Notes: generated from the letters alone by a model not told the origin. Positions 1 to 55,086 are shown, counted from the stretch's first letter. The stretch is DNA of 64,000 nt from an uncultured Eubacteriales bacterium (GCA_902787375.1 CADAGD010000007.1:3878-67877); one strand, 5' to 3'. A program made the numbers and translations.

Positions 1-1021
1 GGAATATAAGGTTGTTGTCAACATAGAAGCGGCAGTTGTCCCAATCATATGAATCGTTGGAACCTTCGCCCCATGCTTTATAATCGAATTTGACTATGTC
101 ACCTTCGTTTGCACTGACAGTTGCAGTTATTGTTGATGTGGAGTTGCCTACTCCCGCGTTGCCGGACATAGCATACTCACGGTCGCCTTCCGTTTCAACG
201 GTCCAAGGATAATTCGCACTTGTTTCGAAATGAAGCGTGCCGCCCTCAACGTTCAGCGCACTGTCAAAGTCTGCAAGTACGGGTGCCTCAGTGGGAACAA
301 CAGGCTCTTCGGTAGGATCAACAGGCACTTCGGTAGGATCAACAACGTCGTCGTCAGCCTCAAAGCCGCACTCATAAACAACGCCGGAGGAATCGCTGAC
401 CTCAAAGTTGTCAACGTCGAGAACGAACATATCGGTTGTATTATAGTGGCGAACAGCTACATAAACGGTATCACCGCTGAATGCGGACAAATCAGCAGTA
501 TACTGAGTATAATTACCGGTAGCAATAAACTCGTCGGATATCTTCGTCATTTCCGCCGTATCAGCGGAAGCACCCGCGTAAATAGCAAAATGCTCCGCAG
601 CCCAACTTGGATCCTGTCCCGCCGCATAGAACGAAACCGAAGCTTCGCCTTCAGCAAGCTCAATAGCAGGTGAAACAGCCCAATTGTTGGGTGTCAAAGC
701 ACTACCTGTGTCATTATCATATGACTCCGAGGTAATAACACCCTCACCCTCATAGGCGGTATAGTGGGGAGTTTCGCTGTAATCCTGCTGCCACTCCCAG
801 TTGTAGCCATCGCCATCCAGATCGACAAACTGCCAACCGTTTTCAGAACGGACTGATGCGTTTGCTTCGTTTCCTGTCACAACGGATTTTTCAGCGGAAA
901 TATCTTTTTTCGCAAATCCATTGTCACCGGACATGCTTGCTTCTGTCGCAAATACACTCATAGGGATGAGAGCCATCACCATGAGGAATGCAACCAGTAC
1001 GCTAACAAGTCTCTTAGTCAT
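1..1021 (-). CDS. Secreted cleaved-adhesin / choice-of-anchor-J-like domain protein (N-terminal part; C-terminus runs off left edge)
   Basis: Not in ORF track (no stop in window). My translation from ATG 1019-1021: MTKRLVSVLVAFLMVMALIPMSVFA signal peptide, then ENGWQFVDLDGDGYNWEW...PNNWAVSPAIEL...VYVAVRHYNTTDMFVLDVDNFEV; GGAGG RBS 9 nt upstream. Confidence 0.75.
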   Translation of the reverse strand, partial: MTKRLVSVLVAFLMVMALIPMSVFATEASMSGDNGFAKKDISAEKSVVTGNEANASVRSENGWQFVDLDGDGYNWEWQQDYSETPHYTAYEGEGVITSESYDNDTGSALTPNNWAVSPAIELAEGEASVSFYAAGQDPSWAAEHFAIYAGASADTAEMTKISDEFIATGNYTQYTADLSAFSGDTVYVAVRHYNTTDMFVLDVDNFEVSDSSGVVYECGFEADDDVVDPTEVPVDPTEEPVVPTEAPVLADFDSALNVEGGTLHFETSANYPWTVETEGDREYAMSGNAGVGNSTSTITATVSANEGDIVKFDYKAWGEGSNDSYDWDNCRFYVDNNLIF

Positions 1022-1450: not shown

Positions 1451-1661
1451 GACTACGGACAAAGTCCGCTTTTCTTGGCTTCCCCTTTGAGGGGAAGCTG
1501 TCAGACGAAGTCTGACTGATGAGGTGAAAACAATGACACTATCAAAAAAGCCAAGTGCTTATTGAGTTTTTTGCCACCTCATCCACCACCGCTGAGGCGG
1601 CGGTCCCCCTTCCCCTCGCAGGGGAAGGCAGGTATTTCCGGCGCATTTGGGGTTTGTCAGC
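1451..1661 (+). repeat. Composite GC-hairpin intergenic repeat (family G), copy 1
   Basis: cttcccctttgaggggaag, gatgaggtg...cacctcatc long-range inverted repeat, ccgctgaggcgg, ccttcccctcgcaggggaagg, tttggggtttgtcagc; homologous to 15622-15822 and 16035-16193. Confidence 0.8.
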
Positions 1662-4993: not shown

Positions 4994-5293
4994 ATGGCCC
5001 CTCACGATGAAAGAAACGAAGAAAAACTTAATTCACAATATGATGAAGAAACGGGGCTTCCGCTTGACGAAACCTATCTTGAGAAGGGCTTGCCGTCTTA
5101 TCTCTCGAAGTCCATTGAGGAAATGGAAAAGTCTTGGGCAATAGAGGATGCGGGAGGTCGGGATAATCTATGGGACTGCACATGGTGCAACCTGAACGCC
5201 GATATAAACGCCGCAGAGGTTGAACATGAAATATCATCAAGACAGGCTTGGTATCTCAGGCGAAAATACCTCAGAATGGTGGATGAGGATTGA
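4994..5293 (+). CDS. Small acidic hypothetical protein (paralog family, copy 1)
   Basis: AGGAGG RBS 6 nt upstream; highly similar (roughly nine-tenths identical by eye) to 42013-42315; fragment at 12797-12945; no domain recognised. Confidence 0.65.
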   Translation: MAPHDERNEEKLNSQYDEETGLPLDETYLEKGLPSYLSKSIEEMEKSWAIEDAGGRDNLWDCTWCNLNADINAAEVEHEISSRQAWYLRRKYLRMVDED

Positions 5294-5569
5294 CAGGCTT
5301 TACAGAACTGCCAATATGCACCCAACTTCACAGAGGAGAGTGTGTCGTATAAGGCCACTCTCCGAAGCATATCTAATTATAATAAGACACACCTAAAGAT
5401 TCGGCAGATAATAAGCGTTTTTCCGTTATATCAATTCGACGAATTATCGGTTCCCGATGAAGCATAATTAAAACTCTGTAAAGCCAAGATAGCAAGGCAT
5501 TGCCGTTTGAATCAAGGGCATTGGCTCCTCTTGATATTTGACCGAGCAACAGCATTAAAGAGGGCCTGT

Positions 5570-6466
5570 TTAAAACAATCTGCAAAGTCCGAGCAATGCT
5601 GCTGCTATGAAGAACACTGCTGTCTTTAATAGCAGGGGTATAATCTTGGAATCAAGCAATCGTTTTTCGCAATGACAAATGTTCGATTTCGGACAGCCGA
5701 ACATACAGCGTTCACAGCAAATGCACTCGCCATTCATAACGGAATCATTCTCAAGCTTTATATTAACCGGGCAGTTGCGCTTACATATATCACAGCCCTT
5801 GATACAGTTCGCGGAATCCCTTTTGAGTATCCCAAATGGGAATACCGGAAGAAGTGTGAAAAAGGCTCCTATGGGACAAAGGAATCTGCAAAAGCCGCGT
5901 TCACAGAAAGCCATGAGCAGCAGCACCGTCACGAAGGCTATAATTCCTGCCGTATATCCTCCGAGTTTGAAGTTGAATGATGTTATCATTGAAAAAACAT
6001 CCAACGGGCTTGTACCCGTCAGGGCTGAATCGAACGAAAAAGCACAGGCGATGATTATAAAAGCCAGATTCAGAAGCTTAAGCTTTGAGAGCAGCACGGC
6101 GTATCTATCTGATATTGTCAGTTGTTTTTTCCTTTTAAACACCCGCTTTTGGACAATTCCCGAAAGCCAATAGACGAAATCACCAAGGCTTCCGAAAGCG
6201 CAGAAATACCCGCAGAACAGCCTTCCGAATACCATTGTAAAAACGGTAAAAAACAGTAAAACGGCAATAAATCCATCCGGCTGTATGACCGCACCCGCTG
6301 CGATGCTTCTGAATATCTGCTTTATTCCATTAAGGCACGCGGCAAAAGCTCCCGGCATGAGCAGGAAAAATAGCGTTCTTATTGCTGTACGAAGCATAAA
6401 ATGCAGCTTTTTTTGCTTCGCCATTGTTTGAGCCTTTGTAAGCACTTTTTCTTTTTTTCGCTCCAT
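5570..6466 (-). CDS. Membrane 4Fe-4S polyferredoxin (NapH/NosR-like)
   Basis: Multiple TM helices, two Cys-rich ferredoxin-type motifs ending in CP (CIKGCDICKRNCP, CICCERCMFGCP); start moved to ATG 6466 with GGAGG RBS next to the upstream stop. Confidence 0.8.
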   Translation of the reverse strand: MERKKEKVLTKAQTMAKQKKLHFMLRTAIRTLFFLLMPGAFAACLNGIKQIFRSIAAGAVIQPDGFIAVLLFFTVFTMVFGRLFCGYFCAFGSLGDFVYWLSGIVQKRVFKRKKQLTISDRYAVLLSKLKLLNLAFIIIACAFSFDSALTGTSPLDVFSMITSFNFKLGGYTAGIIAFVTVLLLMAFCERGFCRFLCPIGAFFTLLPVFPFGILKRDSANCIKGCDICKRNCPVNIKLENDSVMNGECICCERCMFGCPKSNICHCEKRLLDSKIIPLLLKTAVFFIAAALLGLCRLF

Positions 6467-6467
6467 A

Positions 6468-6944
6468 TCATTCCTCCGCGCCGCGAAGTGCAGCCTTGAC
6501 CGCCTCGATAATGCCCTTTGAACTGAATGTCGCACCCGAAACCGTATCTATATCCGTGCTTTGCGCCGTAATAATGCTTTCCAATACGGCCTCCGCCTGC
6601 GCCAGATACACCGAGTCCTCACCCGGTGCGTTCTCTATCAAGACTGTTGTGATGGTGTCATCCTTAACCGTGACTGTCACATTTATTTCTCCGCCGAAGC
6701 CCTGACCGCTTCCCGAATATGTGCCATCCTTGTACCGATGACCCGGCTCGGCGTCGCTTTCATTCGTATTATGCTCTGTACTCATGCGCTGAATCATCTC
6801 ATTATATGCCCTTATCTCCGCCGCTTTTTCGCTGTTTTCCTTCACAAGCCGCGCACGCGAGCTTGCGGCGAAACCGTAAATCAGGAGTGCTGCGGCAATA
6901 AGGCAAAAGCTTATCAGCTTCACAGTAAAAACAGGATGTTTCAT
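6468..6944 (-). CDS. FMN-binding domain protein (single domain, membrane anchored)
   Basis: MKHPVFTVKLISFCLIAAALLIY anchor; DIDTVSGATFSSKGIIEAVKAAL FMN_bind / flavinylation motif. Confidence 0.85.
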   Translation of the reverse strand: MKHPVFTVKLISFCLIAAALLIYGFAASSRARLVKENSEKAAEIRAYNEMIQRMSTEHNTNESDAEPGHRYKDGTYSGSGQGFGGEINVTVTVKDDTITTVLIENAPGEDSVYLAQAEAVLESIITAQSTDIDTVSGATFSSKGIIEAVKAALRGAEE

Positions 6945-8817
6945 ATTCAACCCTTTCCGGAATTATACTTCCATAAACAATCGGTTTCCCGTCAATATCG
7001 CCCGTCGTGCCGAAACCGGAGGCTGTATCATTATGCTCCGCATCGGCAAGCGCGGCTTCAGCCATTCTAATGAGCGCGTTTGAGCTGTATGTTGCGCTGC
7101 TGACAACGTCAAGCTCATCGGCACTCTGCTTTGTTATGAGCTGCTCCACTATGCCCATATATCTGACACCCTGCCGCACTCTGCCATTTACGGCATAATC
7201 AATATAGCGGTCATTGGCTTCGGGATCATCTGAGTTATCCTGTGTCTTTTCGACCGATACAGCGGTTATGCAATGATCCTCGATCGTGATTACGGTCTTG
7301 AGCATATAGTCGAACATATCATCGTCGCTGCATCGGGCAAATGCCTCATATTCCCCATCGGCGAACATGTGTCCCGGCTCTTGAGTCGGTTCCGCTGTTA
7401 CATCCGGCGTCGGCTGCGGTTCATCCGATGGAGTCGGAGATACATCCGGTATCAGAGTTTGTGTAGGGTTCTGTGTCGGTTCCGCCGTCGGAATCGGATC
7501 GGGTTCGGCTGAAGGTGACGGCGTTAAATCGGGGGTTCCGTTTTCTGCCAACGCATTATTTACCGCATTGACGATCGCCATTGAGCTGTATGTTGCGTGA
7601 CTGACGGCGTCTATCCCGTCAAGCGATTGTCTGGTTATTATTTGATCGGGAATGCCCTCATAGTACGTCTGACCAATGCTTCTGCCATCCACCGCGTTTT
7701 TAAGATAGGTATCATTTGCCTCCGGATCATCCGATCTGTCCTCAAGCTTTGTCACTATTATGCTGACTATTCTTCCATCGGTTATTTCAACCTCTGCCAT
7801 AACGGTATAGTCAAAGAAATTGTTATCGCTGCAAATCGCCGTACCGTCAAAACTGCCGTCACCTGTTATGGGAAGCACGGGATGATCTCCCACCGCTGCT
7901 GTTTCCGATGGTTTGGGGCTGTTGGTTGGATTTGCCGTCTGCGGCTCATCGTTCCCTCCTGCCTGCATCAGCGCACGTTTAACTGCATTTATTATTCCGT
8001 TTGATGAGTATGTTGCGGAAGATACGACATCGACATTGGGTGAATTTGCCTTTATTATCCTGCCTATGACCGCCATCGCTCTTGCAAAATATGAATCTGT
8101 TTCATGCTCGGCCGAAAGCACTCTTATGCTCTCTATCCTTCCGTTTTTGATAGTAACCGCGACGCGGATCTCTCCCTGGAAGCCGAATGCGGAGCCATAA
8201 TACACTCCGTCCTTATAGCCCTTTGGCTCATCGAACTTGATGACCTGCTTGCCGTTATGAGAATTCGGATCGGGTGGTTCCGACGTCTTGTCCGCTCCTT
8301 CATCTTTGGTTCCACTGATCGCATTTTTTATCGCGTTCAAAATACCGCGAGAGCTGAATGTTGCCCCTGAAACAACATCAACATTCGTGCTTTGCGCCTT
8401 CAGCACCCGGTCAATAACACCCAATGCCATTTCAAGGAATCTCGGCGTTTCCTTTTCCGCCGAAAGCAAATCCACCTTTTGCAGCCTTCCTCCCTCGACC
8501 GTTACCTCAACGGTTATTTCTCCTCCGAAGCCCTGTGCCGTACCGCGAAAAATGCCATCCACAAAATTCTCGTTTTTCCCCGCCTCTCCGAAACGCTCAT
8601 CTTCATCGGCAGGAGCCGTACAGAGCGGCGTTGGCTTCGGAGTCTCCAACTGCGGCTGTGCGGTTTGGTATTGCATGACGGCAAGCTTTTCCGGCAGTGC
8701 CTCCGGTTCAGGCAGATTGCAAATTCCCCTTATGGTTATGCCTCCGACAAGAAGCGCAGGCAACATAAGACATGCAATGCCTAACCGACTTTTTCGGTTT
8801 TTGACAATCGTTTCCAT
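6802..8817 (-). CDS. Multi-FMN-binding-domain (multi-flavinylated) extracytosolic protein, four domains
   Basis: N-terminal anchor; motifs VVSGATFSS, VVSSATYSS, AVSHATYSS, VVSSATYSS each followed by an (I/A)xxAxxxAL helix; Pro/Thr-rich linkers; start ATG 8817 or 8823; 3' end overlaps the next gene by about 140 nt. Confidence 0.85.
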   Translation of the reverse strand: METIVKNRKSRLGIACLMLPALLVGGITIRGICNLPEPEALPEKLAVMQYQTAQPQLETPKPTPLCTAPADEDERFGEAGKNENFVDGIFRGTAQGFGGEITVEVTVEGGRLQKVDLLSAEKETPRFLEMALGVIDRVLKAQSTNVDVVSGATFSSRGILNAIKNAISGTKDEGADKTSEPPDPNSHNGKQVIKFDEPKGYKDGVYYGSAFGFQGEIRVAVTIKNGRIESIRVLSAEHETDSYFARAMAVIGRIIKANSPNVDVVSSATYSSNGIINAVKRALMQAGGNDEPQTANPTNSPKPSETAAVGDHPVLPITGDGSFDGTAICSDNNFFDYTVMAEVEITDGRIVSIIVTKLEDRSDDPEANDTYLKNAVDGRSIGQTYYEGIPDQIITRQSLDGIDAVSHATYSSMAIVNAVNNALAENGTPDLTPSPSAEPDPIPTAEPTQNPTQTLIPDVSPTPSDEPQPTPDVTAEPTQEPGHMFADGEYEAFARCSDDDMFDYMLKTVITIEDHCITAVSVEKTQDNSDDPEANDRYIDYAVNGRVRQGVRYMGIVEQLITKQSADELDVVSSATYSSNALIRMAEAALADAEHNDTASGFGTTGDIDGKPIVYGSIIPERVEYETSCFYCEADKLLPYCRSTPDLRFRRKLACAACEGKQRKSGGDKGI

Positions 8818-8819
8818 AT

Positions 8820-9884
8820 TCATTCTCCGATTATGTTCACATGAAATGATGATGTGAAGCTTTGAGCGAGCGGTGCTGTAACGTATATATCGCCATCGTC
8901 CGTCATAAGTATCATGTCGAAGTCCTCACCGTATTCTTTCCAGTATTCAATGGAGCCTTCAAGTCCCATGACATAACATGCCGTTGAAAGCGCATCGGCA
9001 AGCATTCCGCTTTTGCTCACAATGGTCGTTGAGGAAAGCCCGCTTTCAGCAGGATAGCCTGTTTTGGGGTCGATTATATGGTGATAGCGTTTTGAGCTGC
9101 TTTCGTCGATAAAGAATCGCTCGTACGCCCCCGATGTTACAACCGCCCTGTCCTCGACCTCGACGACGCCAAGATAAACGCTCGAATCGGGATACATTGG
9201 ATGAGCTATACCGCAGCGAAACAGATTTCCATCCGTTTTTCTTTTATAGCATTGAACATTTCCGCCAAGCGAAACACAGCCTGAAACCATGCCGTAGCTA
9301 TCGAACACCTCCATCAACCTGTCCGATGTAAAACCCTTTGCTATTCCTCCCAGATCTATGCCATGTGCGTCGCCAAGCTCAAGACTGTCCTGTGTGAATA
9401 TCGGCTTTTCAAAGCCCACATGCTCAAGCTCCGATTCAAGTTCTTCCTTTTGCGGAACCCTGTACTCCGAATCGGTAAACCCCCAAAGCCGCATTATCGG
9501 ATATATGCTGATATCGAAAGCTCCATTCGTGGCACGTGATATTTCAAGCGCCTTTTCGATTATGTGCGCAGTATCCTCGCTTATCTTCGCTTTGCCAAAC
9601 GTGTTCACAGCGTTTATATCGCTTTCCTCTCCCGATACCGAAAGCAGAGCATCAAGCCTCTGTATCTCCGCTATTGCGGCTTCAAGTGCCTCCTCGCTCC
9701 TCTGTCCGCTGCATGTTATTTTCATGTAAGTATCCATTGCGAATACCTCACCGCTTGCAGTGTGTATTTGTTCCGCATTATTTGATGCGGTTCCTGCTGC
9801 GCAAGCCGCTGAAAGCATTGCAAGCAGGCTTATCAATATCGCCGAAATTACTGTTTTCATGCGTATTTTTTGAGTTTCTTGCAT
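8820..9884 (-). CDS. apbE: ApbE-family FAD:protein FMN transferase lipoprotein
   Basis: Lipobox LLAMLSAAC; AFDISIYPIMRLWGF and IDLGGIAKGF motifs; AGGAGG RBS 6 nt upstream of ATG 9884. Confidence 0.85.
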   Translation of the reverse strand: MQETQKIRMKTVISAILISLLAMLSAACAAGTASNNAEQIHTASGEVFAMDTYMKITCSGQRSEEALEAAIAEIQRLDALLSVSGEESDINAVNTFGKAKISEDTAHIIEKALEISRATNGAFDISIYPIMRLWGFTDSEYRVPQKEELESELEHVGFEKPIFTQDSLELGDAHGIDLGGIAKGFTSDRLMEVFDSYGMVSGCVSLGGNVQCYKRKTDGNLFRCGIAHPMYPDSSVYLGVVEVEDRAVVTSGAYERFFIDESSSKRYHHIIDPKTGYPAESGLSSTTIVSKSGMLADALSTACYVMGLEGSIEYWKEYGEDFDMILMTDDGDIYVTAPLAQSFTSSFHVNIIGE

Positions 9885-10363
9885 AGTATTCCTCCTATAA
9901 AACCTATCAGCGCACCGCTTGCCATACCGCTAATCCACAATACTGTCATATACCATGCTATTGCGGAAGTACTCATTATGAGCATGGCTGCAAGTATTTG
10001 CCCCAAATTATGGGCAACTCCTCCTACGGTACTGACAGCGGTTATCGAGAACCTGTTGGTTTTCTTCAAAAGTATCATAACGGCTCCGCTGAGAAGTCCT
10101 CCCGACATGCTGTAAACAAAGCTCAGGCCGTTTCCGAAGAGTATCGAGACTATCAATATTCTTACAATGTTAATAAAAACTGCACTTCTGCTGTCCTTGA
10201 GATACAGCGTTATCAGTACGACCGTATTCGTAAGTCCAAGCTTCATACCCGGCACGGCAAAAAAAGGAGGAAACTGCGCCTCAACATAGCTCAATATGAG
10301 CGCAAGCGCAATCAACATGCTGTAGACGGGTACGCTTTTTATTATTCTGTTTCTGTTATTCAT
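9857..10363 (-). CDS. Gx transporter family membrane protein (heptaprenyl diphosphate synthase component I-like)
   Basis: About five TM helices, PGMKLGLTNTVVLITLY segment; usual partner of NusG-II proteins as I recall the family. Confidence 0.65.
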   Translation of the reverse strand: MNNRNRIIKSVPVYSMLIALALILSYVEAQFPPFFAVPGMKLGLTNTVVLITLYLKDSRSAVFINIVRILIVSILFGNGLSFVYSMSGGLLSGAVMILLKKTNRFSITAVSTVGGVAHNLGQILAAMLIMSTSAIAWYMTVLWISGMASGALIGFIGGILCKKLKKYA

Positions 10364-10744
10364 CTATTGTCCGACTTCAATATCCACGGATGCATCGTCC
10401 GTCGCATCGCCTACTATCTCAATTACCACCTTATTGGGCAGGCATATAACGGAAGCTCCTGTATTGCGTATATGCCCCATATTAACACAAAGACCATCGG
10501 GACATGATGCGCTTTCTATCCATGCCTCTCCGTCCCTTACTATCAAAATGTTTTTTCCATTGTTAATTCCGTTTATCTCATATTCAATATTGTTTGAAAG
10601 GGGAAATGCAGTAATCAGCTCTCCGTCAACCTTTACTTCCACAAAGCCGCCCGGCTTTGCGGTAAACAGATTCCATATGATTACAGCAAAAAAAACCATG
10701 AGCAATGCCCCGAAAAGAATGAGGTCATTTTTATACTTTTTCAT
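10364..10744 (-). CDS. NusG domain II-containing protein
   Basis: TM anchor then VKVDGELI...ASCPDGLCVNMGHIRNTGASVICLPNKVVIEI; start ambiguous (ATG 10744 or 10798). Confidence 0.7.
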   Translation of the reverse strand: MKKYKNDLILFGALLMVFFAVIIWNLFTAKPGGFVEVKVDGELITAFPLSNNIEYEINGINNGKNILIVRDGEAWIESASCPDGLCVNMGHIRNTGASVICLPNKVVIEIVGDATDDASVDIEVGQ

Positions 10745-10820
10745 TGTCCTAAACAAGTTCACCGGTATGCGCGATGAAAGCTGTGCTGCATCACGCATAC
10801 CGATGGTAAAGGTTCAGAGC

Positions 10821-12551
10821 TTATGTGGGGAATGCTTCAAGCGAACCCATCGAGTATCGAAGTATCAGCAATGCATCGGTCGTATTTATGTTTCCGCTGC
10901 CGTTTACATCGCCTGCCGCTATCTGTGTATCGGTAAATTCGTCAAGTCCCATGGCAAACCTCAGCGCAAGTATAGCATCAAGTACGCTGACCTCTCCGTC
11001 GCCGTCAATGTCTCCAAGCATGGGAGGTATATAAACCGCTGTTGTCTTGCGGATTATATAGTTATCGCAAAGGAATTCAACCGTGACAGTCTTCTCCTCG
11101 TCAAGCGTCGAAACAAGCGCAATACTTCCATTTTCAACCGGAACATATATCGGCTGTACCCTTCCGTTTTCGTCAACATAGGTTTCGGTGAGATATGTCC
11201 TCTGTTTGCCAACGGAATAGTAGACTATCGCGGTCACGTTCTCGGCGTCTTCGGGAATGCCTGAGACACCTACACTTGCCGCATTGATGAACTCAGCCTC
11301 CACCTGACCTTTATAAACAACCGGAATGGTTTCGTCTGCTGTGTAATCATAAACGAAGTAATTACCCTGCTTGTCATTGCAGTAATAACGGATGGAGGTG
11401 ATGGTTTTCCCGTCAAGAACATCCACGTTATCGGCATTCCATGCTATGGAGTTATATGCCCAGATATTGTAAAGGTGGATCATACCCGCAGCATTTCCAT
11501 CCTCCGCGGTTATTATCATGGCGTTCACCTGCTTGCCTTGTAACTCGTCTGCGTTGATTATATCAAACTGAACATCACCCCAGTGGGTACTGTAGCTCAC
11601 ACCCATCTCAAGCTTTTCAAGCTCAACATGCTCATTCTCAACGGCGTTGAACTCTATTTCACCGTTGTTCAGAACCGCGCTCATATAATAAGCGGGTTCA
11701 TCATCAAGAATATAATACGAATACGAGGGAGCCTCCATCATCGAATCCCTTCCGACAAGCTCAACCGCGTTTGTGTTTCCATGAGCTGCCGAGGCAACTA
11801 TAACGGTACGATCGTCCGTTATCTCTATACCGCCAAGTGCTTCCGCAGAGTTGAGTACATCTGCGTCCTCTACATACACAGGCCATATAACTCCCTCAAG
11901 GTGAGCTCCATTTTCCTTGCCTACTGCAACTATGTTTCCTTCTTCATCATAATCCGCTGTCTGCGCGGAATGATATGATCCGCCTGCCTTATTGACATTG
12001 CCTACCTTGCTCGTTGCGGAGGACATGGCGTCAATATCGAATACAGATACACCCTCCGCATTATAGAACTTGTCATATGGAATGTTCATAAGAACATAGG
12101 TGCCGGGCTCCTCATTGTCAACTTTTGACAACGCATCGTTAACTGCTTCTATGAGAGCAACTGATGTACGGGTCGCTCCGGAGACGACGTCTATATCCTC
12201 GGTTGACTGTTTTTCAACTATCTGAGAAAGCGGGCTCGGATAGAAAACGCCTCCGCGCGTTCTCCCGTTTACGGCATAATTCCAGTATGGATCGTTATCC
12301 TCGTCATAGCTCTCTGAGTCATGCGCGGCGGTTATGGATTCTATTATGCTGCCATTCATCACCACATCGACAGTAAGACCATAGTCCGCAAAATCGCCCT
12401 CTGTATCGAGAACGGTCGCTTCACCGGTATAAGCCGCATCTCTCATTGTTGCATCAGCGGCAGCCACAGCTCCGGCACCGGAAAATGCACTGAATACCAT
12501 AAGAAAAGCGATTAAACCGGCACAAATCCTTTTAGGGTTACAATTCTTCAT
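10821..12551 (-). CDS. Secreted FMN-binding domain protein with C-terminal type I dockerin
   Basis: Signal peptide MKNCNPKRICAGLIAFLMVFSAFSGAGAVAA; DIDVVSGATRTSVALIEAVNDAL; C-terminal GDIDGDGEVSVLDAILALRFAMG...AGDVNGSGNINTTDALLILRYSMG duplicated Ca-binding dockerin repeats; start at ATG 12551 with AGGAAGG RBS. Confidence 0.85.
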   Translation of the reverse strand: MKNCNPKRICAGLIAFLMVFSAFSGAGAVAAADATMRDAAYTGEATVLDTEGDFADYGLTVDVVMNGSIIESITAAHDSESYDEDNDPYWNYAVNGRTRGGVFYPSPLSQIVEKQSTEDIDVVSGATRTSVALIEAVNDALSKVDNEEPGTYVLMNIPYDKFYNAEGVSVFDIDAMSSATSKVGNVNKAGGSYHSAQTADYDEEGNIVAVGKENGAHLEGVIWPVYVEDADVLNSAEALGGIEITDDRTVIVASAAHGNTNAVELVGRDSMMEAPSYSYYILDDEPAYYMSAVLNNGEIEFNAVENEHVELEKLEMGVSYSTHWGDVQFDIINADELQGKQVNAMIITAEDGNAAGMIHLYNIWAYNSIAWNADNVDVLDGKTITSIRYYCNDKQGNYFVYDYTADETIPVVYKGQVEAEFINAASVGVSGIPEDAENVTAIVYYSVGKQRTYLTETYVDENGRVQPIYVPVENGSIALVSTLDEEKTVTVEFLCDNYIIRKTTAVYIPPMLGDIDGDGEVSVLDAILALRFAMGLDEFTDTQIAAGDVNGSGNINTTDALLILRYSMGSLEAFPT

Positions 12552-12716
12552 TGTGTTCCTTCCTTTCATGATGTATGCTGTTTATACCGCAGGCAGTTAC
12601 CAGCCGCTAACTCCGCTTTTAAAATAAATGCGGTGCATCTGTCAACGACCGCAGTTTGTTTTCAAATGAGAGTAAAACAGGTTTTATTGCCAAAAGCATA
12701 AATCAACACCACGGTT

Positions 12717-12745
12717 AGTATAAGCTAACTTGAGTGAATTGTCAA
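12717..12745 (-). promoter_or_regulatory. Candidate promoter of the FMN/ApbE operon
   Basis: Minus-sense TTGACA (12740-12745), 17 nt, TATACT (12717-12722); about 150-nt leader. Confidence 0.45.
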
Positions 12746-12796
12746 TACAGAAAAACGCCTATTTTAGTATATTAATCTTTTTCATTTATCCGGGGC

Positions 12797-12945
12797 TGTT
12801 AAAGCTCCTGATGTCCGGATCATCTATGGGACTGCATGGTTAACCTGAACGCCGATATAAACGCCGCAGAGGTTGAACATGAAATATCATTCAAACAGGC
12901 TTGGTATCTCAGGCGAAAATACCTCAGAATGGTGGATGAGGATTG
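12797..12945 (+). pseudogene. Fragment of the small acidic protein family (copy 3, frameshifted and 5'-truncated)
   Basis: catctatgggactgcatggttaacctgaacgccgatataaacgccgcagaggttgaacatgaaatatca...ggtggatgaggattga aligns to the 3' half of 4994-5293 with a 2-nt deletion. Confidence 0.8.
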
Positions 12946-12989
12946 AGAACAGCCTTTTTGTATAAAAGAAAAGGGGCTATTGCACTAAG

Positions 12990-13168
12990 CCCCGGCGTTG
13001 AGGCAATATGCCGAAAAGACGGAGTGGTTGTTTTTCTTTATTTTGTTTATGTTTTTTGGCCTTTCACATGAAGTCGGTCGGGCTGCATGCTCCCCGACCT
13101 TCCCTGCGTAAGGGAAGGTGGCTTTGAGGCAGTATGCAGAATGCCGAAAAGACGAAAGGGTCGCTTTC
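12990..13168 (+). repeat. Intergenic repeat family K (two tandem partial units plus ccttccc-N-gggaagg hairpin)
   Basis: 13090-13168 is the reverse complement of 15829-15915 (gccgaaaagacgaaagggtcgctttcc, ccttccctgcgtaagggaagg); partial unit at 12990-13030. Confidence 0.8.
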
Positions 13169-13461
13169 CTATATCTCACTTGAGTTTTTTAGTTGCTTTC
13201 AACCCCTCAGTCATCCTCGCTCTGCTCGGCTGACAGCTCCCCTTGACAATGGGAGCCAAGTTAATTTGCAATTACTAAATTTCAAGAATCGAGAATATGA
13301 GGCACTTACTGAATGGATGCGTTATAAAAGCCCCAAGGGAAGGAAATCTCCTTGGGGCAAAATATTGGGGTTTTACAAAGGACATGCTGTTGGAAACCGC
13401 TTTATGGCGCGGAGGCAAAGCAATCCTTTTCGGTGTGAAGAATCAGCCGATCGGATCAGGT

Positions 13462-14679
13462 TCAATTGCCGCCAAGCAGGAGGTTGTACATAAGTGTTAT
13501 GTCGGATACGCTTATAACGCCGTCGTTGTTGAGATCGCCACTCGCCAAATTCTCAAGCGTCATGCCCGTCATATCGCCGTTTAGCAGATAGTAATAGAGA
13601 ACCGTCACGTCGTTGAACGTCAGCTCGCCATCGCCGTCGACATCGCCGGGGATGATCTCAGGCTCGCCGCCCGTGAATTTGGCGATGAATACCTTTTCGG
13701 TTCTGCCATTTATACTCCATTCGGCATCGGTTGAAAGCAATTCGCCGTCCTCGTTGTACCAGCCGAGGAAGCTCTCACGATCTTGAGGTACTGCATATAG
13801 CCAAGTAAAATTATAATTGAAGTTGCGGTAATAACCAATATATCCTTTTCCTTCTGTGTATATGCGGTCGATTGGAAGCTTCGTGTTGTTGCTCAAATCA
13901 AGCTCGGTCAGGTGGGTGTCTTGGCAATCCAAATTCCCAAGCGCGGTGCAGCCGCTCACGTCAAGCTCGGTCAGGTTGTTGCCGTCGCAATCCAAATCCT
14001 CAAGCGCGGTACAGCCGCTCACGTCAAGCGTGGTCAGGTTGTTGTCGTGGCAAGACAAATATGTAAGCGCAGTACAGTCGCTCGCGTCAAGCGTGGTCAG
14101 GTTGTTGTAGCTACACCACAAAGTCATAAGCGCGGTACAGCCGCTCACGTCAAGCGTGGTCAGGTTATTGGAGCCGCAATACAAATACACAAGCGCGTTA
14201 TTGCTGCTCACGTCAAGCGTGGTCAGATTGTTGAAGTCGCAATACAAAGTCTGAAGCGCAGTATTGTTGCTCACGTCAAGCGTGGTCAGGTTGTTGGAGG
14301 AGCACCACAACTCCTCAAGCGCGGTACAGCCGCTCACGTCAAGGAGTCCGCAAAGTCCGCAACTTTCTCCATATATTATTTGTATCCTGAGTTCGCCATC
14401 CGATTCAATCCATTGAAATCTTTGACCATTCCAATATGTTCCCCAAGTTGCGGGATCATTGGGATCATAATTATCACTCAGCTTTTCTCCGTTTTTCACG
14501 CCCTCATCGTCGGTCTGTTCGAGGAATGCGACGAGCTTCTGGTAGTCATTGTCGTTATAGCCTTCGGGGGTGGGATACCTCATAGTCGATTCGTCGAGCG
14601 CGAAAACGGGCAGAGCCGAAGCGACATTGAGGACTGCGAATACTGCCGCGATTACGGCTGCCAAGACACGTTTTTTCAT
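13462..14679 (-). CDS. Secreted leucine-rich-repeat (BspA-like) protein with C-terminal dockerin
   Basis: Signal peptide; about eight 22-aa repeats NNLTTLDVSGCTALxxLxC; C-terminal GDVDGDGELTFNDVTVLYYYLL...SGDLNNDGVISVSDITLMYNLLLG. Confidence 0.85.
   Translation of the reverse strand: MKKRVLAAVIAAVFAVLNVASALPVFALDESTMRYPTPEGYNDNDYQKLVAFLEQTDDEGVKNGEKLSDNYDPNDPATWGTYWNGQRFQWIESDGELRIQIIYGESCGLCGLLDVSGCTALEELWCSSNNLTTLDVSNNTALQTLYCDFNNLTTLDVSSNNALVYLYCGSNNLTTLDVSGCTALMTLWCSYNNLTTLDASDCTALTYLSCHDNNLTTLDVSGCTALEDLDCDGNNLTELDVSGCTALGNLDCQDTHLTELDLSNNTKLPIDRIYTEGKGYIGYYRNFNYNFTWLYAVPQDRESFLGWYNEDGELLSTDAEWSINGRTEKVFIAKFTGGEPEIIPGDVDGDGELTFNDVTVLYYYLLNGDMTGMTLENLASGDLNNDGVISVSDITLMYNLLLGGN
13885..14345 (-). 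repeat. Tandem 66-nt coding repeats (LRR units)
   Basis: Recurring gtcaagcgtggtcaggttgtt... units on the plus strand with 66-nt period. Confidence 0.8.
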
Positions 14680-15621: not shown

Positions 15622-15822
15622 GGACTGCGGACAAGGCCCGCTTTCCTTGGCTTCCCCATTGAGGGAGACTCAATCTGACTGATGAGGTGGAAGAATCGGC
15701 TCCATCGAAAAAACAAATATTCGTTAAGCTTTTTGCCACCTCATCCACCACCGCTGAGGCGGCGGTTCCCCTTCCCCTCGTAGGGGAAGGCAGGCATCTT
15801 TAGCGCGTTTGGGGTTTGTCAG
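15622..15822 (+). repeat. Composite GC-hairpin repeat (family G), copy 2
   Basis: Colinear with 1451-1661, including tttttgccacctcatccaccaccgctgaggcggcggt and tttggggtttgtcagc. Confidence 0.8.
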
Positions 15823-15828
15823 CCGAGC

Positions 15829-16034: not shown

Positions 16035-16252
16035 CCCGCTTTCCCTTTTGAAGGGAAGCTGTCAGACGCAGTCCGGCTAATGAGGTGGAAGCAACAGCTT
16101 TATCGAAAAAGCCAAGTGCTCATTGAGTTTTTGCCACCTCATCCACCACCGCTGAGGCGGCGGTTCCTCTTCCCCTCACAGGGGAAGGCAGGGTCGGCGA
16201 CAACTTCATCCCGTGTTGTGGCGATTCCCCTTTTCCTCGCAGGAGAAGGCAG
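16035..16252 (+). repeat. Composite GC-hairpin repeat (family G), copy 3 plus extra hairpin
   Basis: Colinear with copies 1 and 2 to 16193; extra ttccccttttcctcgcaggagaagg hairpin. Confidence 0.8.
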
Positions 16253-23056: not shown

Positions 23057-23141
23057 TGGTGGACGGGGATGGATTCGAACCATCGTAGTCTGTGACAACG
23101 GATTTACAGTCCGCTCCCTTTGGCCGCTCGGGAACCCGTCC
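23057..23141 (-). tRNA. tRNA-Tyr (anticodon GTA)
   Basis: Minus-sense GGACGGGTTCCCGAGCGGCCAAAGGGAGCGGACTGTAAATCCGTTGTCACAGACTACGATGGTTCGAATCCATCCCCGTCCACCA; long variable arm, CCA encoded. Confidence 0.9.
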
Positions 23142-23161
23142 GTATTAAATTCAGCATAAAC

Positions 23162-23189
23162 ATTATACAACAAAAAAAGCGATTGTCAA
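23162..23189 (-). promoter_or_regulatory. Promoter of tRNA-Tyr
   Basis: Minus-sense TTGACA (23184-23189), 16 nt, TATAAT (23162-23167). Confidence 0.6.
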
Positions 23190-23260
23190 ATATATTATTT
23201 GCCCTGTTCTTGCATATTTGCGGCTTGTAATTATATATTATTCGTATTCCGATTTTTACC

Positions 23261-23289
23261 TTGACTTTTTCAAATGTGTTTGATATAAT
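23261..23289 (+). promoter_or_regulatory. Promoter of the tRNA-Ser pair
   Basis: TTGACT (23261-23266), 17 nt, TATAAT (23284-23289). Confidence 0.6.
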
Positions 23290-23305
23290 AGTTTTGTTGA
23301 CGTTT

Positions 23306-23394
23306 GGAGAGATGGCCGAGTGGTTGAAGGCGCCGGTCTTGAAAACCGGTGATGTCGAAAGGCACCGGGGGTTCAAATCCCTCTCTCTCCGCCA
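23306..23394 (+). tRNA. tRNA-Ser (anticodon TGA)
   Basis: GGAGAGATGGCCGAGTGGTTGAAGGCGCCGGTCTTGAAAACCGG..., long variable arm, GGTTCAAATCC T-loop, CCA encoded. Confidence 0.9.
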
Positions 23395-23404
23395 ATACCG
23401 ATTT

Positions 23405-23496
23405 GGAGAAGTACCCAAGAGGTCGAAGGGGCTCCCCTGCTAAGGGAGTAGGCTCTGCGAAGGGGCGCCAGGGTTCAAATCCCTGCTTCTCCGCCA
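23405..23496 (+). tRNA. tRNA-Ser (anticodon GCT)
   Basis: GGAGAAGTACCCAAGAGGTCGAAGGGGCTCCCCTGCTAAGGGAG..., long variable arm, CCA encoded. Confidence 0.9.
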
Positions 23497-24835: not shown

Positions 24836-25396
24836 TTGGATGACAACCTGATAGTTAACCTGTACCTGCGGCGTGACGAGAATGCCATAGAACAGACTTC
24901 CGAGAAATACGGAGCGCGTCTGCGTTCGCTTGCCCATTCGATAGTCAACGACCGCTTGACCTCCGAGGAATGCGAGAACGACACATACATGGAAGCATGG
25001 AAATCCATTCCTCCGCATGAACCAAGGGATTATCTGTATGCGTTTCTCGCCCGAATAATAAGGCATATCGCGTTGAACTGCTGCCGTTACAACAACCGAT
25101 TGAAGCGCAGCGCGTATATATGCGAGTTGAGCAATGAGCTGGAGCAATGCCTGCCTGCGTCCGGCGGTGCCGAATTCTCCATTGACGACATTGCCCTGCG
25201 GGAAACCATCAACGCTTTTTTAGGTCGTTTGGATGAGGAAAAGCGCAACATATTCATACGCCGTTACTGGTATCTGGATTCAACCGCCGATATCTCAAAA
25301 CGCTTTTCCGTTTCCGAAAGCAAGGTCAAAACCACGCTTTTCCGCTGCCGCAACAGGCTTAGGGAGCATCTTGAAAGAGAGGGTTACAAAATATGA
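24836..25396 (+). CDS. Sigma-70 family (ECF-type) RNA polymerase sigma factor, TTG start
   Basis: Region 2 (ECENDTYMEAWKSI) and region 4 HTH (RRYWYLDSTADISKRFSVSESKVKTTLFRCRNRL). Confidence 0.8.
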   Translation: MDDNLIVNLYLRRDENAIEQTSEKYGARLRSLAHSIVNDRLTSEECENDTYMEAWKSIPPHEPRDYLYAFLARIIRHIALNCCRYNNRLKRSAYICELSNELEQCLPASGGAEFSIDDIALRETINAFLGRLDEEKRNIFIRRYWYLDSTADISKRFSVSESKVKTTLFRCRNRLREHLEREGYKI

Positions 25397-26229
25397 ACGG
25401 AACCGAATTATTGGATAAAATGGAGCTTATTGACGCCGCTTATGTAGAGTCAGCCGACGCAGTTCCGAAAAGGCAAAATCGCATATGGATTGGATGGGGC
25501 GTTGCTGCGGCGTGTTTATGCCTTGTTATAGGAGCGGCTGTCATCATTACCAAAACAATAAGACCTAATGATACAACGGCTTTTTTCGATGCGGTCGAAA
25601 TACCGGACGACGCCGTAATGCCGCCTGTAAGAGAGGGCAGCAGCCAATCCGAAACACAATATCGCAAATTATACAACTATGCGTCAGCATATGATGAAGC
25701 GGACGCCGTGTGCATAGTTACGGTCGGCAACTGGCTCTCCGAGTTCGGTATGTTTACATTATTTGACGCAAAAGTAGAAAAGGTTTACAAGGGCAGCATC
25801 CCCGATAAAATAGTCCTTCTTCAGAATGAAAATTCAAAGTATCATTTTACATCCCCTATATTCTCATATGGCAATAGGCTTCTTGTATTCCTTAACTCAT
25901 GGGATAGATGGGGTGAGAATGCACATTACGATAACGCATATGCCATGATCGGCCCTGATTACACCACCTTGTACTTATCATATGATAACTCAAAAAAAGC
26001 ATATCTCATAGCATTGAATGGATTCGCAGGCTCATTAGGTGAAGAAGCGGGCATTTCTTTGACGAATTCCCGTAACGTCAACCTGCTCAATGAACTCGAT
26101 AATTATATAAAGAAAACCGACAGCTACCTTGCTGAACAGATCGAAAAACGGTTCGATGAAGATGAATTCACACGCGTGAGGATATACGCATTGAGCGATT
26201 TTGAAGAATTCTTCGATTCAAGAAATTGA
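25393..26229 (+). CDS. Single-pass membrane protein, putative anti-sigma partner
   Basis: 4-nt overlap with the sigma gene; short cytoplasmic N-terminus, TM IWIGWGVAAACLCLVIGAAVII, extracytoplasmic domain. Confidence 0.45.
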   Translation: MNGTELLDKMELIDAAYVESADAVPKRQNRIWIGWGVAAACLCLVIGAAVIITKTIRPNDTTAFFDAVEIPDDAVMPPVREGSSQSETQYRKLYNYASAYDEADAVCIVTVGNWLSEFGMFTLFDAKVEKVYKGSIPDKIVLLQNENSKYHFTSPIFSYGNRLLVFLNSWDRWGENAHYDNAYAMIGPDYTTLYLSYDNSKKAYLIALNGFAGSLGEEAGISLTNSRNVNLLNELDNYIKKTDSYLAEQIEKRFDEDEFTRVRIYALSDFEEFFDSRN

Positions 26230-39678: not shown

Positions 39679-39755
39679 GCGCCTGTAGCTCAGGTGGATA
39701 GAGCAACGGTCTTCTAAACCGTGGGTCCGGGGTTCGAGTCCCTGCAGGCGCGCCA
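39679..39755 (+). tRNA. tRNA-Arg (anticodon TCT)
   Basis: GCGCCTGTAGCTCAGGTGGATAGAGCAACGGTCTTCTAAACCGT...CAGGCGCGCCA. Confidence 0.9.
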
Positions 39756-39783
39756 TTTTCAAAGCCGTCTGCAAAAGTGTTAT

Positions 39784-39861
39784 GGTGGGTGTAGTTCAGT
39801 TGGCTAGAATGCCAGATTGTGGCTCTGGAGGTCGTGGGTTCGAGCCCCACCACTCACCCCA
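39784..39861 (+). tRNA. tRNA-His (anticodon GTG, with G-1)
   Basis: G-GTGGGTGTAGTTCAGTTGGCTAGAATGCCAGATTGTGGCTCTGG...CACTCACCCCA. Confidence 0.9.
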
Positions 39862-39923
39862 TTTACTGAGAGCTTTTGACGCAGGGCAAGGGCTTTATTT
39901 ATGAAGTGGGACTTGTGAACCGT

Positions 39924-39998
39924 TGGGGTGTCGCCAAGTGGTCAAGGCATGGGACTTTGACTCCCACATCGTAGGTTCAAATCCTGCCACCCCAGCCA
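39924..39998 (+). tRNA. tRNA-Gln (anticodon TTG)
   Basis: TGGGGTGTCGCCAAGTGGTCAAGGCATGGGACTTTGACTCCCA...CACCCCAGCCA. Confidence 0.9.
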
Positions 39999-40005
39999 GC
40001 CTTTT

Positions 40006-40081
40006 GACCCGTTAGCTCAGTCGGTAGAGCACTTGACTTTTAATCAAGGTGTCCCGGGTTCGAATCCCGGACGGGTCACCA
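40006..40081 (+). tRNA. tRNA-Lys (anticodon TTT)
   Basis: GACCCGTTAGCTCAGTCGGTAGAGCACTTGACTTTTAATCAAG...ACGGGTCACCA. Confidence 0.9.
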
Positions 40082-40091
40082 AAATTATCGT

Positions 40092-40177
<86 letters not shown>

Positions 40178-40198
40178 CTACCCTGACAACAGAATAAC

Positions 40199-40272
40199 GC
40201 GGGTATAGTGTAATGGTAACACATTAGCCTTCCAAGCTGAGATAGAGGGTTCGAGTCCCTTTACCCGCTCCA
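40199..40272 (+). tRNA. tRNA-Gly (anticodon TCC)
   Basis: GCGGGTATAGTGTAATGGTAACACATTAGCCTTCCAAGCTGA...TACCCGCTCCA. Confidence 0.9.
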
Positions 40273-42012: not shown

Positions 42013-42315
42013 ATGGACACTCACGATGAAAGAAACGAAGAAAAACTTAATTCACAGTATGATGAAGAAACGGGACTTCCGCTTGACGAAACATACCTAG
42101 AGAAGGGTTTGCCGCCTTATCTCTCGAAGTCCATTGAGGAAATGGAAAAGTCTTGGGCAATAGAGGATGCGGGAGGCTGGGATCATCTATGGGACTGCAC
42201 ATGGTGCAACCTGAACGCCGATATAAACGCCGCAGAGGTTGAACATGAAATATCACCAAGACAGGCTTGGTATCTCAGACGAAAATATCTCAGAATGGAG
42301 GATGAAAACGATTGA
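42013..42315 (+). CDS. Small acidic hypothetical protein (paralog family, copy 2)
   Basis: Highly similar to 4994-5293; GGGAGG RBS. Confidence 0.65.
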   Translation: MDTHDERNEEKLNSQYDEETGLPLDETYLEKGLPPYLSKSIEEMEKSWAIEDAGGWDHLWDCTWCNLNADINAAEVEHEISPRQAWYLRRKYLRMEDEND

Positions 42316-43703: not shown

Positions 43704-44225
43704 ATGCCCGAACGTGATTTCGACAGCATATATAATGATTACTCGCGTCTTGTCTATTGGGCGGCATATCGGGTACTTAACAACAGGGAATTGACGGAGG
43801 ACGTTACTCAAAACGTCTTTATATCCGTGCTTAAAAACATGGAAAACATCGTCGTACTGCCGGATGCTCAGATCAAGGGATGGCTTTACAGGGTTGCCGT
43901 AAACGCCGCTCTTGACGCGAAGCGGCGTCTTGGCAGGGAGGTGCTGTCGGACGAGCCTGTTGGTGCCGATGTGGTCGATTCGGGGTCTTCTCCTGAGGAA
44001 CAGACCATGGACAACATTGTTCACGCGGCTGTAAGGGAAGTCCTTTCGGCAATGGACGATATCTACCGTGAGCCGTTGATGATGTTCTACTATTCCGAGA
44101 TGAGCATTCTTGATATAGCTGCGGCTCTCAATATAACGGAGGGAACTGTCAAGTCGCGCATGAGCAGGGGGAGAAAGATTTTAGCAAGGCATTTGAGCGC
44201 AAAGGGGATCAATTATGAACGATGA
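43704..44225 (+). CDS. Sigma-70 family (ECF-type) RNA polymerase sigma factor
   Basis: LVYWAAYRVLNNRELTEDVTQNVFISV (region 2), MFYYSEMSILDIAAALNITEGTVKSRMSRGRKIL (region 4); start uncertain (43620, 43668 or 43704); the track's 5' extension is antisense to the GNAT gene. Confidence 0.8.
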   Translation: MPERDFDSIYNDYSRLVYWAAYRVLNNRELTEDVTQNVFISVLKNMENIVVLPDAQIKGWLYRVAVNAALDAKRRLGREVLSDEPVGADVVDSGSSPEEQTMDNIVHAAVREVLSAMDDIYREPLMMFYYSEMSILDIAAALNITEGTVKSRMSRGRKILARHLSAKGINYER

Positions 44226-49461: not shown

Positions 49462-49499
49462 AAAACGCCTTTCAATCGGGATATTATAATAAAAACCGA

Positions 49500-49691
49500 C
49501 CCATATCCGAAAGCTGTGCCTTCGGACACGGATCGTCAACAAACAGGGGCGAAAGAAATTAAATTCAGGAAGTTCCTGAATGTACCGGGCCGTACACGGA
49601 CACGCTGCCTGCAAAGCCGCCGCTTTAAAGCGTCAAAAGTCCGTGCCTTGCCCCCCGCAGGCGCATGGCGTTCCGCCCCCGTCGTTTGCCC
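49500..49691 (-). ncRNA. Candidate structured RNA upstream of the RT (hypothetical)
   Basis: GC-rich intergenic segment with several stems (ggcg-gaa-cgcc, ccgt-gt-acgg, attcaggaa/ttcctgaat, tccgaa-N8-ttcgga); no homology evidence. Confidence 0.25.
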
Positions 49692-55006: not shown

Positions 55007-55083
55007 TGGTAGCGGCAATCTGATTCGAACAGATGACACTCCGGGTATGAACCGAATGCTCTAGCCAGCTGAGCTATGCCGCC
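55007..55083 (-). tRNA. tRNA-Met, elongator type (anticodon CAT)
   Basis: Minus-sense GGCGGCATAGCTCAGCTGGCTAGAGCATTCGGTTCATACCCGGAG...TGCCGCTACCA; resembles Bacillus elongator tRNA-Met; tRNA-Ile2 not formally excluded. Confidence 0.8.
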
Positions 55084-55086
55084 AAA

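Follow-up and report, generated by a model that had tools for sequence, protein, structure and literature searches.

We analyzed a 64,000-nucleotide stretch of DNA from an uncultured Eubacteriales bacterium (GCA_902787375.1, CADAGD010000007.1:3878-67877; hereafter the window), in which positions 5570 to 12745 hold an operon of seven genes, g1 to g7. A preliminary description, made from the sequence alone, had placed these genes on the minus strand and assigned each product to a protein family. Our check of the open reading frames (ORFs) recovered all seven on that strand, between 5570 and 12569 and with unchanged coordinates, and a Pfam scan of their products found every family that had been named, with matches above the gathering cut-offs for all seven genes (Table 1). 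The proposal of an ApbE-centered operon for extracytosolic flavinylation and electron transfer was likewise borne out, and the operon falls into the multi-flavinylated, NapH-like class described previously (PMC8238504). Six canonical flavinylation motifs are encoded, at T133 of g1, at T155, T271, T411 and T578 of g5, and at T141 of g6. The earlier account of g1 was right about its FMN_bind domain and its dockerin, and left residues ~153-515 between them undescribed. This middle domain likely is a remote homolog of the Treponema pallidum protein Tp47, and appears to hold a seventh flavin-attachment site.

Table 1 Features of the operon and its edges, with positions counted from the first letter of the window.
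Feature	Position	Strand	Description
g1	10821-12569	-	FMN_bind, 39.5 bits; Dockerin_1, 38.1 bits (cut-off 22.9); signal peptide, FMN_bind, Tp47-like domain, type I dockerin; secreted surface flavoprotein, 582 amino acids
g1 FMN_bind domain	12126-12371	-	Residues 67-148; DVVSGAT, T133 codon 12171-12173
g1 Tp47-like domain	11025-12113	-	Residues ~153-515; no Pfam match
g1 type I dockerin	10854-11018	-	Residues 518-572; Dockerin_1, 38.1 bits (cut-off 22.9)
g2	10364-10798	-	NusG_II, 96 bits; one transmembrane segment, membrane-anchored
g3	9857-10363	-	Hpre_diP_synt_I (PF07456, "Gx"), 127 bits; polytopic membrane protein
g4	8820-9884	-	ApbE (PF02424), 269 bits; FAD:protein FMN transferase
g5	6802-8823	-	Four FMN_bind stretches, 170 bits; Pro/Thr-rich linkers
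g6	6468-6950	-	Single FMN_bind, 53 bits; membrane-anchored
g7	5570-6535	-	Fer4_5 (PF12801) x2, 47.8 bits; polytopic, transmembrane segments
Promoter-like site	12717-12745	-	TTGACA-17-TATACT; 11/12 consensus matches; ~150 nt upstream of g1
Direct repeat, left copy	5154-5295	+	3' end and stop codon of ORF 4994-5293 (99 amino acids)
Direct repeat, right partial copy	12810-12948	+	97% over 105 nt; just upstream of the operon promoter

The middle domain is the most conserved part of g1, with the motifs YVLMNIPYxxFYxAE, D180-A-M-S-S-A-T186, GGSYH and H365..NIW, and has no match in Pfam or NCBIfam. An exhaustive scan of 1.84 billion representative proteins returned 449 relatives, 360 of them at E ≤ 1e-10; many relatives are large surface proteins in which 2-8 copies of the domain follow one another in tandem. 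AlphaFold2 models reached a predicted local distance difference test (pLDDT) value of 84 for full-length g1 and 88 for the domain alone. When each was compared with the PDB using Foldseek, the top match in both searches was 1o75, T. pallidum Tp47 (E 4e-9 and 5.5e-8, probability 1.00), which was also the sole match over the whole architecture of the domain; the other matches were to generic strings of immunoglobulin (Ig) and Fn3 domains, with template-modeling (TM) scores of at most 0.38 for the full protein and 0.33 for the domain only. Profiles pointed the same way, with hhalign aligning the g1-domain profile to a profile of 31 true Tp47 proteins collinearly from end to end and with the motifs in register (E 1.1e-4, probability 57%). 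Tp47 (TP0574, the 47-kDa lipoprotein of PDB 1O75) shares with g1 the motifs Y..a.L.Y..YW.gE, D-A-V-S-x-A-T and YG..H..D/N.W at an identity of ~12-16%. It differs from g1 in an insertion (about residues 80-160) that g1 does not have, and in being a lipoprotein with neither FMN_bind nor dockerin. A sequence-only search of solved structures with the g1 family matched FMN_bind domains alone. Faint matches to DUF2271 in 4 members of the g1 family were not reproduced in the 10 members that we rescanned, and this candidate was dropped.

The motif DAMSSAT ends at T186 (codon 12012-12014). Across the family its consensus is D-x-[VFI]-[ST]-[ST]-A-T, located after the loop that follows YVLMNIPYxxFYxAE, and its threonine is invariant in the alignment. 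Of 257 N-intact copies of the domain in 134 representatives (50% identity), 249 have the motif, and the 8 without it include degenerate copies in multi-copy proteins. In the AlphaFold2 model it sits in a flexible loop with a pLDDT below 50, and ApbE is able to flavinylate motifs placed in surface loops. The counterpart in Tp47 that aligns to the T186 motif is FDAVSRATHGHG, and the Tp47 residues D70, V72, R74, T76 and G80 are invariant across the 31 true Tp47 proteins. The Tp47-family motif D-x-V-[ST]-R-A-T..HG is matched by D180 to T186 of g1, with the family-invariant R being S in g1. The assignment of Tp47 as a penicillin-binding protein is based on the motifs SVTK, TEN and KTG, and these are not conserved among the 31 Tp47-family proteins. 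As judged from these alignments, the Tp47-like domain appears to carry its own flavin-attachment site at T186.

The genomic context of both kinds of domain was consistent with a role in flavin chemistry. We surveyed 34 species-representative loci with a g1-type domain, counting ApbE when it lay within 10 kb. ApbE was nearby in 18 of the 34 loci and a NapH-like gene in 13, including a cluster in the cultured species Coprococcus catus (L024). The usual order was ApbE, a multi-flavinylated protein (MFP), a small FMN_bind protein, the NapH-like protein (followed in some cases by NusG_II and PF07456) and the large surface protein. Genes for ApbE and MFP also adjoined members of the g1 family that have no FMN_bind domain themselves, such as L005, L015 and L024. 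True Tp47 genes (PF14889/PF14888), like g1, adjoin FMN_bind/ApbE machinery, and lay directly upstream of FMN_bind genes in all five loci examined (L041-L045), three of which also had ApbE, EetB or NapH-like genes. In T. pallidum (L041), tp47 is followed by a gene for a membrane protein with Ferric_reduct and FMN_bind domains, which is probably TP0572; Deka et al. (2015) listed TP0572 as a motif-bearing protein and did not list Tp47. A Clostridium-type locus (L042) has the order Tp47, Ferric_reduct/FMN_bind, ApbE, NusG_II, PF07456. An FMN_bind gene comes directly after Tp47 in L043, whereas L044 reads Tp47, FMN_bind, ApbE, FMN_bind, Fer4_5, and L045 reads Tp47, FMN_bind, FMN_bind, Fer4_5, with no ApbE in the order. 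The association extends to domain fusions, with Tp47_a/_c fused to FMN_bind in two proteins (P0182 and P0186) and both Tp47_a/_c and a g1-type domain present in one polypeptide in two others (L030 and P0047).

Several findings weigh against a Tp47-like flavoprotein domain. The superposition on 1o75 is loose, with a TM score of 0.44-0.47, which is below 0.5, and a root-mean-square deviation of 9-11 Å. Aligned to a single Tp47 sequence, the g1-domain profile gave a local match that was not significant (E 0.27), and a Pfam scan of g1 residues 151-516 found no match even at E ≤ 1, the Tp47 models included. True Tp47 members score 180-227 bits on the Pfam models PBP-Tp47_a (PF14889) and PBP-Tp47_c (PF14888), and g1 is not a member of these families. 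The motif ending at T186 departs from the ApbE motif D-x-x-[S/T]-G-A-[S/T] at one position only, the glycine; a change of this glycine to alanine leaves ~50% of flavinylation (PMC12052999), and S or H stands in its place in three of the FMN_bind domains of g5. Finally, 14 of the 34 g1-type loci had no flavinylation gene within the flanks that were fetched. The case for the Tp47 superfamily is indirect, but it draws on independent lines, namely an invariant motif, synteny that reaches from spirochaetes to Clostridia, and fusions of the domains. We see about an even chance that the Tp47-like domain, T. pallidum Tp47 included, is an unrecognized class of ApbE substrate, a surface-exposed or periplasmic flavoprotein that is covalently flavinylated at its invariant threonine, forms the terminal electron output of NapH-like/MsrQ-like chains and, in one rumen lineage, is displayed through dockerin-cohesin binding. 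None of the papers in the literature that we searched connects Tp47, or the Pfam families to which it belongs, with ApbE or with flavin chemistry.

The other unusual feature of g1 is its C-terminus. That the first product of the operon carries a type I dockerin was confirmed by a Pfam score well above the cut-off (Table 1) and by two 22-residue segments, DIDGDGEVSVLD... and DVNGSGNINTTD..., in both of which the calcium-binding D/N/S positions 1, 3, 5 and 12 are kept (D-I-D-G-D-G-E-V-S-V-L-D and D-V-N-G-S-G-N-I-N-T-T-D). Near-identical copies of the operon occur in cow-rumen metagenome assemblies, and the closest g1 among GTDB species representatives is 54% identical. Orthologs of g1 at 52-54% identity, from metagenome-assembled genomes (MAGs) of sheep and cattle rumen, are accompanied by the same eight gene families in a changed order. 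The dockerin is kept in these orthologs (P0001-P0006), which represent at least five related rumen species clusters, and several related MAGs encode a second FMN_bind-dockerin protein of 215 amino acids beside the g1 ortholog. Both observations indicate that the association of dockerin and flavoprotein is real and under selection. At 90% identity, dockerin-bearing proteins form 6 clusters of the g1 type and 7 of the small FMN_bind-dockerin type. Members of the g1 family differ in their C-terminal module, which is a dockerin here and an SLH, choline-binding, FIVAR, LPXTG or Big_2 module in homologs from other Clostridia, and this swapping of anchors favors a generic role in attachment to the cell surface. 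On the simplest reading of this comparison, the dockerin would be this lineage's way of holding its terminal flavoprotein at the surface. The attachment modules named in the main text of Meheust et al. are SLH, Rib, FIVAR and LysM, and dockerin is absent from the list (PMC8238504). Neither dockerin nor Tp47 is mentioned in the accessible part of the supplementary tables of Meheust 2021 and Huang 2024, and no paper in the literature searched combined "dockerin" with "flavinylation", "FMN-binding" or "flavinylated". The dockerin is a new anchor in this class of clusters, confined to a narrow lineage.

Two observations argue against a function for the dockerin in tethering. Pfam scans of 38 ORFs within the window detected no cohesin, although 64 kb is too small a part of the genome for this to settle the matter; for three of these ORFs (25393-26229, 44215-45144 and 51478-52503) there was no match at all. 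In addition, one population variant (L049; ENA ERZ1063458 scaffold_11716) has a 108-bp in-frame deletion at the equivalent of window positions ~10799-10906, which removes the second dockerin repeat, the stop codon of g1 and the spacer, and creates a g1-g2 fusion of 691 amino acids; the dockerin may thus be dispensable in some strains, or the assembly may be wrong. No cohesin was found among the scanned neighbors of g1 orthologs either. A conserved protein of 284 amino acids encoded upstream in L001-L003 was considered as the anchor and rejected, being a PG_binding_1 protein without a signal sequence and without a homolog in the window.

Dockerins in the same lineage are also found on thioredoxin/peroxiredoxin-like, LRR, adhesin-like and subtilase proteins, and cargo this varied looks like a general surface-display system rather than a glycoside-hydrolase cellulosome. 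At least three dockerin proteins are encoded within 15 kb at this locus, namely g1, a leucine-rich repeat (LRR) protein and an adhesin-like protein. The LRR-dockerin gene next door (13462-14679), pointed out in the preliminary description, was confirmed by Pfam. It contains six in-register repeats of 63 nt (21 amino acids) at 13828-14343 that are 66-82% identical. At the positions usually associated with cohesin specificity, its dockerin has FN/YY and VS/YN where that of g1 has VL/LR and TT/LR, and the two dockerins may accordingly bind different partners. The minus strand of window positions 1-1021 encodes the N-terminal part of a 1041-residue Cleaved_Adhesin/Big_2/Dockerin_1 protein that is completed in another contig (L048, 2241-5366). 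In related rumen Clostridia, thioredoxin/AhpC-TSA/Redoxin proteins (P0195, P0203 and P0204) carry dockerins that share 55-63% identity with the one on the small FMN_bind-dockerin protein (query, L001), and several kinds of redox protein are thus displayed by dockerins in this lineage.

The preliminary description listed g3 as a Gx transporter and overlooked that, by its Pfam match, it belongs to the family of the FAD-export subunit EetB. PF07456 comprises the homologs of eetB, and EetB, which binds FAD and resembles the S subunits of energy-coupling factor (ECF) transporters, is required in Listeria for the FAD export that feeds extracytosolic flavinylation by ApbE (PMC9973259). The eetB gene was colocalized with apbE in 2,169 genomes and with eetA in 3,328, and also with some NapH-like systems (PMC9973259). 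NusG_II adjoins PF07456 in our operon and in 10 related loci (L001, L002, L006, L021, L034-L036, L039, L040 and L042), and by this arrangement g2 is probably the EetA-type partner of g3; the Pfam family of EetA is not stated in PMC9973259. For g7, which had been called a NapH/NosR-like polyferredoxin, the two Fer4_5 matches stood, together with the cysteine motifs CGYFCA and CRFLCP and two ferredoxin-type motifs, CIKGCDICKRNCP and CICCERCMFGCP. The NapH/NosR models were matched only below their cut-offs (65.5 bits on napH TIGR02163, cut-off 213; 59.9 on PRK09477, cut-off 234), so that g7 is NapH-like and not NapH proper; no nap genes were found around it.

Adjacent genes from g1 to g7 are separated by a 22-nt gap, abut directly or overlap. 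Gene callers start g1 at M7 (12551; 576 amino acids) and g7 at 6466 (298 amino acids), and these are probably the true starts. Every extracytosolic product, g1, g5, g6 and ApbE included, has an N-terminal hydrophobic segment, which in g4 is combined with a lipobox-like LSAA-C (...LLAMLSAA-C) that predicts a lipoprotein. The end of g5 runs ~145 nt into g6 (6802-6950), and the C-terminal ~80 residues of g5, a tail that overlaps g6, show no similarity to FMN_bind. Since g5 and g6 merely abut in relatives, the stop codon of g5 has seemingly been lost in this population. Gene callers cut g6 to 125 amino acids, with the loss of its membrane anchor. The right edge of the stretch described, 12745, is the -35 hexamer of the promoter-like site, which is a consensus match only, and such sites are not enriched over shuffled sequences in the operon region. 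Rfam at gathering thresholds detected no riboswitch or leader RNA upstream of g1 (12570-13461).

The operon has the sequence features by which Meheust 2021 defined the class, with an extracytosolic ApbE, FMN_bind proteins that include the four-domain g5 and a PF12801 NapH-like protein. It shares with the clusters of Meheust et al. 2021 (PMC8238504) and Huang et al. 2024 (PMC11334425) the ApbE, the secreted FMN_bind proteins, the four-domain MFP and the NapH-like protein, as well as a large surface protein with a wall-attachment module; these clusters were proposed to be a flavin counterpart of multiheme extracellular electron transfer (EET). It differs from them in using a type I dockerin for attachment, and is by virtue of this anchor a new variant within the NapH-like/multi-flavinylated class. 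The part of the surface protein that was "unannotated" in those studies is recognized here as a Tp47-like domain with a flavinylation-type motif. The EET locus of Listeria monocytogenes encodes PplA, FmnB/ApbE, EetA/EetB, FmnA, Ndh2 and DmkA/B (Rivera-Lugo et al. 2023, PMC9973259). In common with it, our operon has an ApbE-type transferase, an EetB homolog preceded by a small membrane protein, and FMN_bind surface carriers. Unlike the Listeria locus, it is without Ndh2, the demethylmenaquinone genes and FmnA (ECF-T), has a NapH-like Fe-S protein for transfer across the membrane, and has as its terminal protein a dockerin-tethered Tp47-like protein instead of a lipoprotein. The operon flavoproteins scored 51 bits on the PplA model, for which the cut-off is 325, and neither Ndh2 nor Dmk was found among the scanned ORFs of the window. 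With Ndh2, Dmk and PplA all missing, the operon is not a Listeria-type EET system. Dockerins outside cellulosomes have been reported in anaerobic methanotrophic (ANME) archaea with EET capacity (Chadwick et al. 2022, PMC9012536), where neither the organisms nor the dockerin-bearing proteins break down polysaccharides. These modules were suggested to organize extracellular complexes, and non-cellulosomal dockerins are widespread (PMC9012536). The ANME case differs from ours in that the organisms are archaea and no flavinylated dockerin proteins were reported.

Our combined findings lead us to lean, with some reservation, towards the operon encoding a self-contained conduit that uses flavins to carry electrons from the membrane out to the cell surface in a Gram-positive Clostridia bacterium of the rumen. 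In such a conduit, g3, as an EetB-type ECF-S subunit, would export FAD, probably together with the EetA-like g2 and with ECF-T and ATPase subunits encoded elsewhere. The lipoprotein ApbE (g4) would then move FMN from FAD onto the threonine of D-x-x-[ST]-x-A-T motifs, at the six canonical sites listed above and at the proposed T186. Electrons from a cytoplasmic or membrane donor would be taken across the membrane by the Fe-S clusters of g7 and passed first to the membrane-anchored g6, then through the four g5 flavins and on to g1; the Pro/Thr-rich linkers of g5 are features that could bridge the wall. In g1 the Tp47-like domain, flavinylated at T186, would be the terminal module and output site, from which soluble or solid extracellular oxidants would be reduced. 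The dockerin would hold g1 at the surface through a cohesin on an anchor protein whose gene lies elsewhere, and would do the job of the SLH, choline-binding, FIVAR or LPXTG modules of its homologs. Some points tell against this reconstruction. What was read from the sequence is a parts list, from which flavinylation, transcription and electron flow are all deduced. The operon also has no ECF-T or ATPase genes, and these subunits must therefore be encoded elsewhere.

The preliminary description took the dockerin to imply docking to a cohesin scaffold of the cellulosome or amylosome type. On such a reading, the dockerin would insert the flavoprotein into a polysaccharide-degrading scaffoldin complex and bring redox chemistry to substrate-bound enzymes. 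The type I dockerin, the rumen origin and the cluster of dockerin proteins at the locus would fit such a complex. We nonetheless consider it improbable, since neither the window nor the neighborhoods of the orthologs yielded a cohesin, scaffoldin, glycoside hydrolase or carbohydrate-binding module, and since the homologs have wall-binding modules (SLH, choline-binding, LPXTG) in place of the dockerin. Furthermore, the dockerin proteins found in this lineage are adhesin-like, LRR, thioredoxin-like and protease proteins and not carbohydrate-active enzymes, and dockerins occur widely outside cellulosomes (PMC9012536).

Two other explanations were weighed. The Tp47-like domain could be a binding, adhesin or peptidoglycan-active module with no redox function, in which case its motif would be structural or otherwise catalytic and the only flavin of g1 would be on the N-terminal FMN_bind domain. 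The literature presents Tp47 as a penicillin-binding carboxypeptidase and not as a flavoprotein (PDB 1o75 title; PMC8525777), the domain consists mainly of Ig-like beta-sandwiches, and the 14 loci without nearby flavinylation genes and the non-canonical glycine position speak for the same view. We find it rather unlikely all the same: within the Tp47 family the motif threonine is invariant while SVTK, TEN and KTG are not conserved, synteny or fusion with ApbE/FMN_bind machinery extends from spirochaetes to Clostridia, family members without FMN_bind remain beside ApbE/MFP genes, the motif lies in a flexible loop, and ApbE accepts motifs placed in surface loops. Alternatively, the operon may encode an assimilatory or protective surface reductase, serving reductive iron or heme acquisition or the scavenging of oxygen and oxidants, and not energy-linked EET. 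No iron transporter or heme-uptake gene lies in or beside the operon, and g1 has no Shr-like hemoglobin-interacting domain. Such domains do occur in 7 of 37 family members, however, FeoB is encoded ~3.6 kb downstream of the cluster in one locus (L004), dockerins are found on thioredoxin/peroxiredoxin-like proteins in the same lineage, and many flavinylation clusters are linked to iron reduction and assimilation (Meheust 2021, PMC8238504). This explanation, which we also rate as fairly doubtful, differs from the electron conduit that we favor solely in the acceptor.

Many gut and rumen Firmicutes may use flavin-based EET to get rid of electrons without cytochromes. In this setting, g1 suggests a structural identity, as a likely Tp47-like protein, for the large terminal protein that had been left "unannotated" in such clusters, and gives it a testable cofactor site at T186. 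The locus also shows that the anchor is interchangeable, and its dockerin version would permit plug-and-play redox display on cohesin scaffolds for bioelectrochemical engineering. The Tp47 superfamily, as a possible new class of ApbE substrates, is a more consequential lead than the dockerin anchor. If the flavinylation prediction is true, Tp47, the main antigen in syphilis serodiagnosis, would have to be reassigned from the penicillin-binding proteins to the redox proteins.

Direct repeats of ~140 nt lie on either side of the operon with its promoter (Table 1), and look like a scar of insertion or recombination. A third, full-length copy of the 99-residue ORF lies at 42013-42315, after a gene of the Fic family, and is 92% identical in nucleotide sequence. 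The operon was present on all nine public contigs that carry the flanking 99-residue gene, and a junction-pattern search of metagenome contigs for an empty site without the operon gave 0 matches. Between g1 and the LRR-dockerin gene lies a gap of 890 bp that also contains short repeats (region 12950-13460, for example 13003-13057 and 13136-13190), and similar intergenic repeats of ~150-200 nt are found elsewhere in the window (1451-1661, 15623-15823 and 16041-16192). Farther away, positions 48256-49666 of the minus strand contain an RT-5 RNA motif (Rfam RF03026, 77.6 bits) and, directly downstream of it, an ORF for a 452-residue RVT_1 reverse transcriptase, and three tRNA clusters (23060-23493, 39679-40269 and 55010-55162) contain 12 of the 13 tRNA genes of the window.

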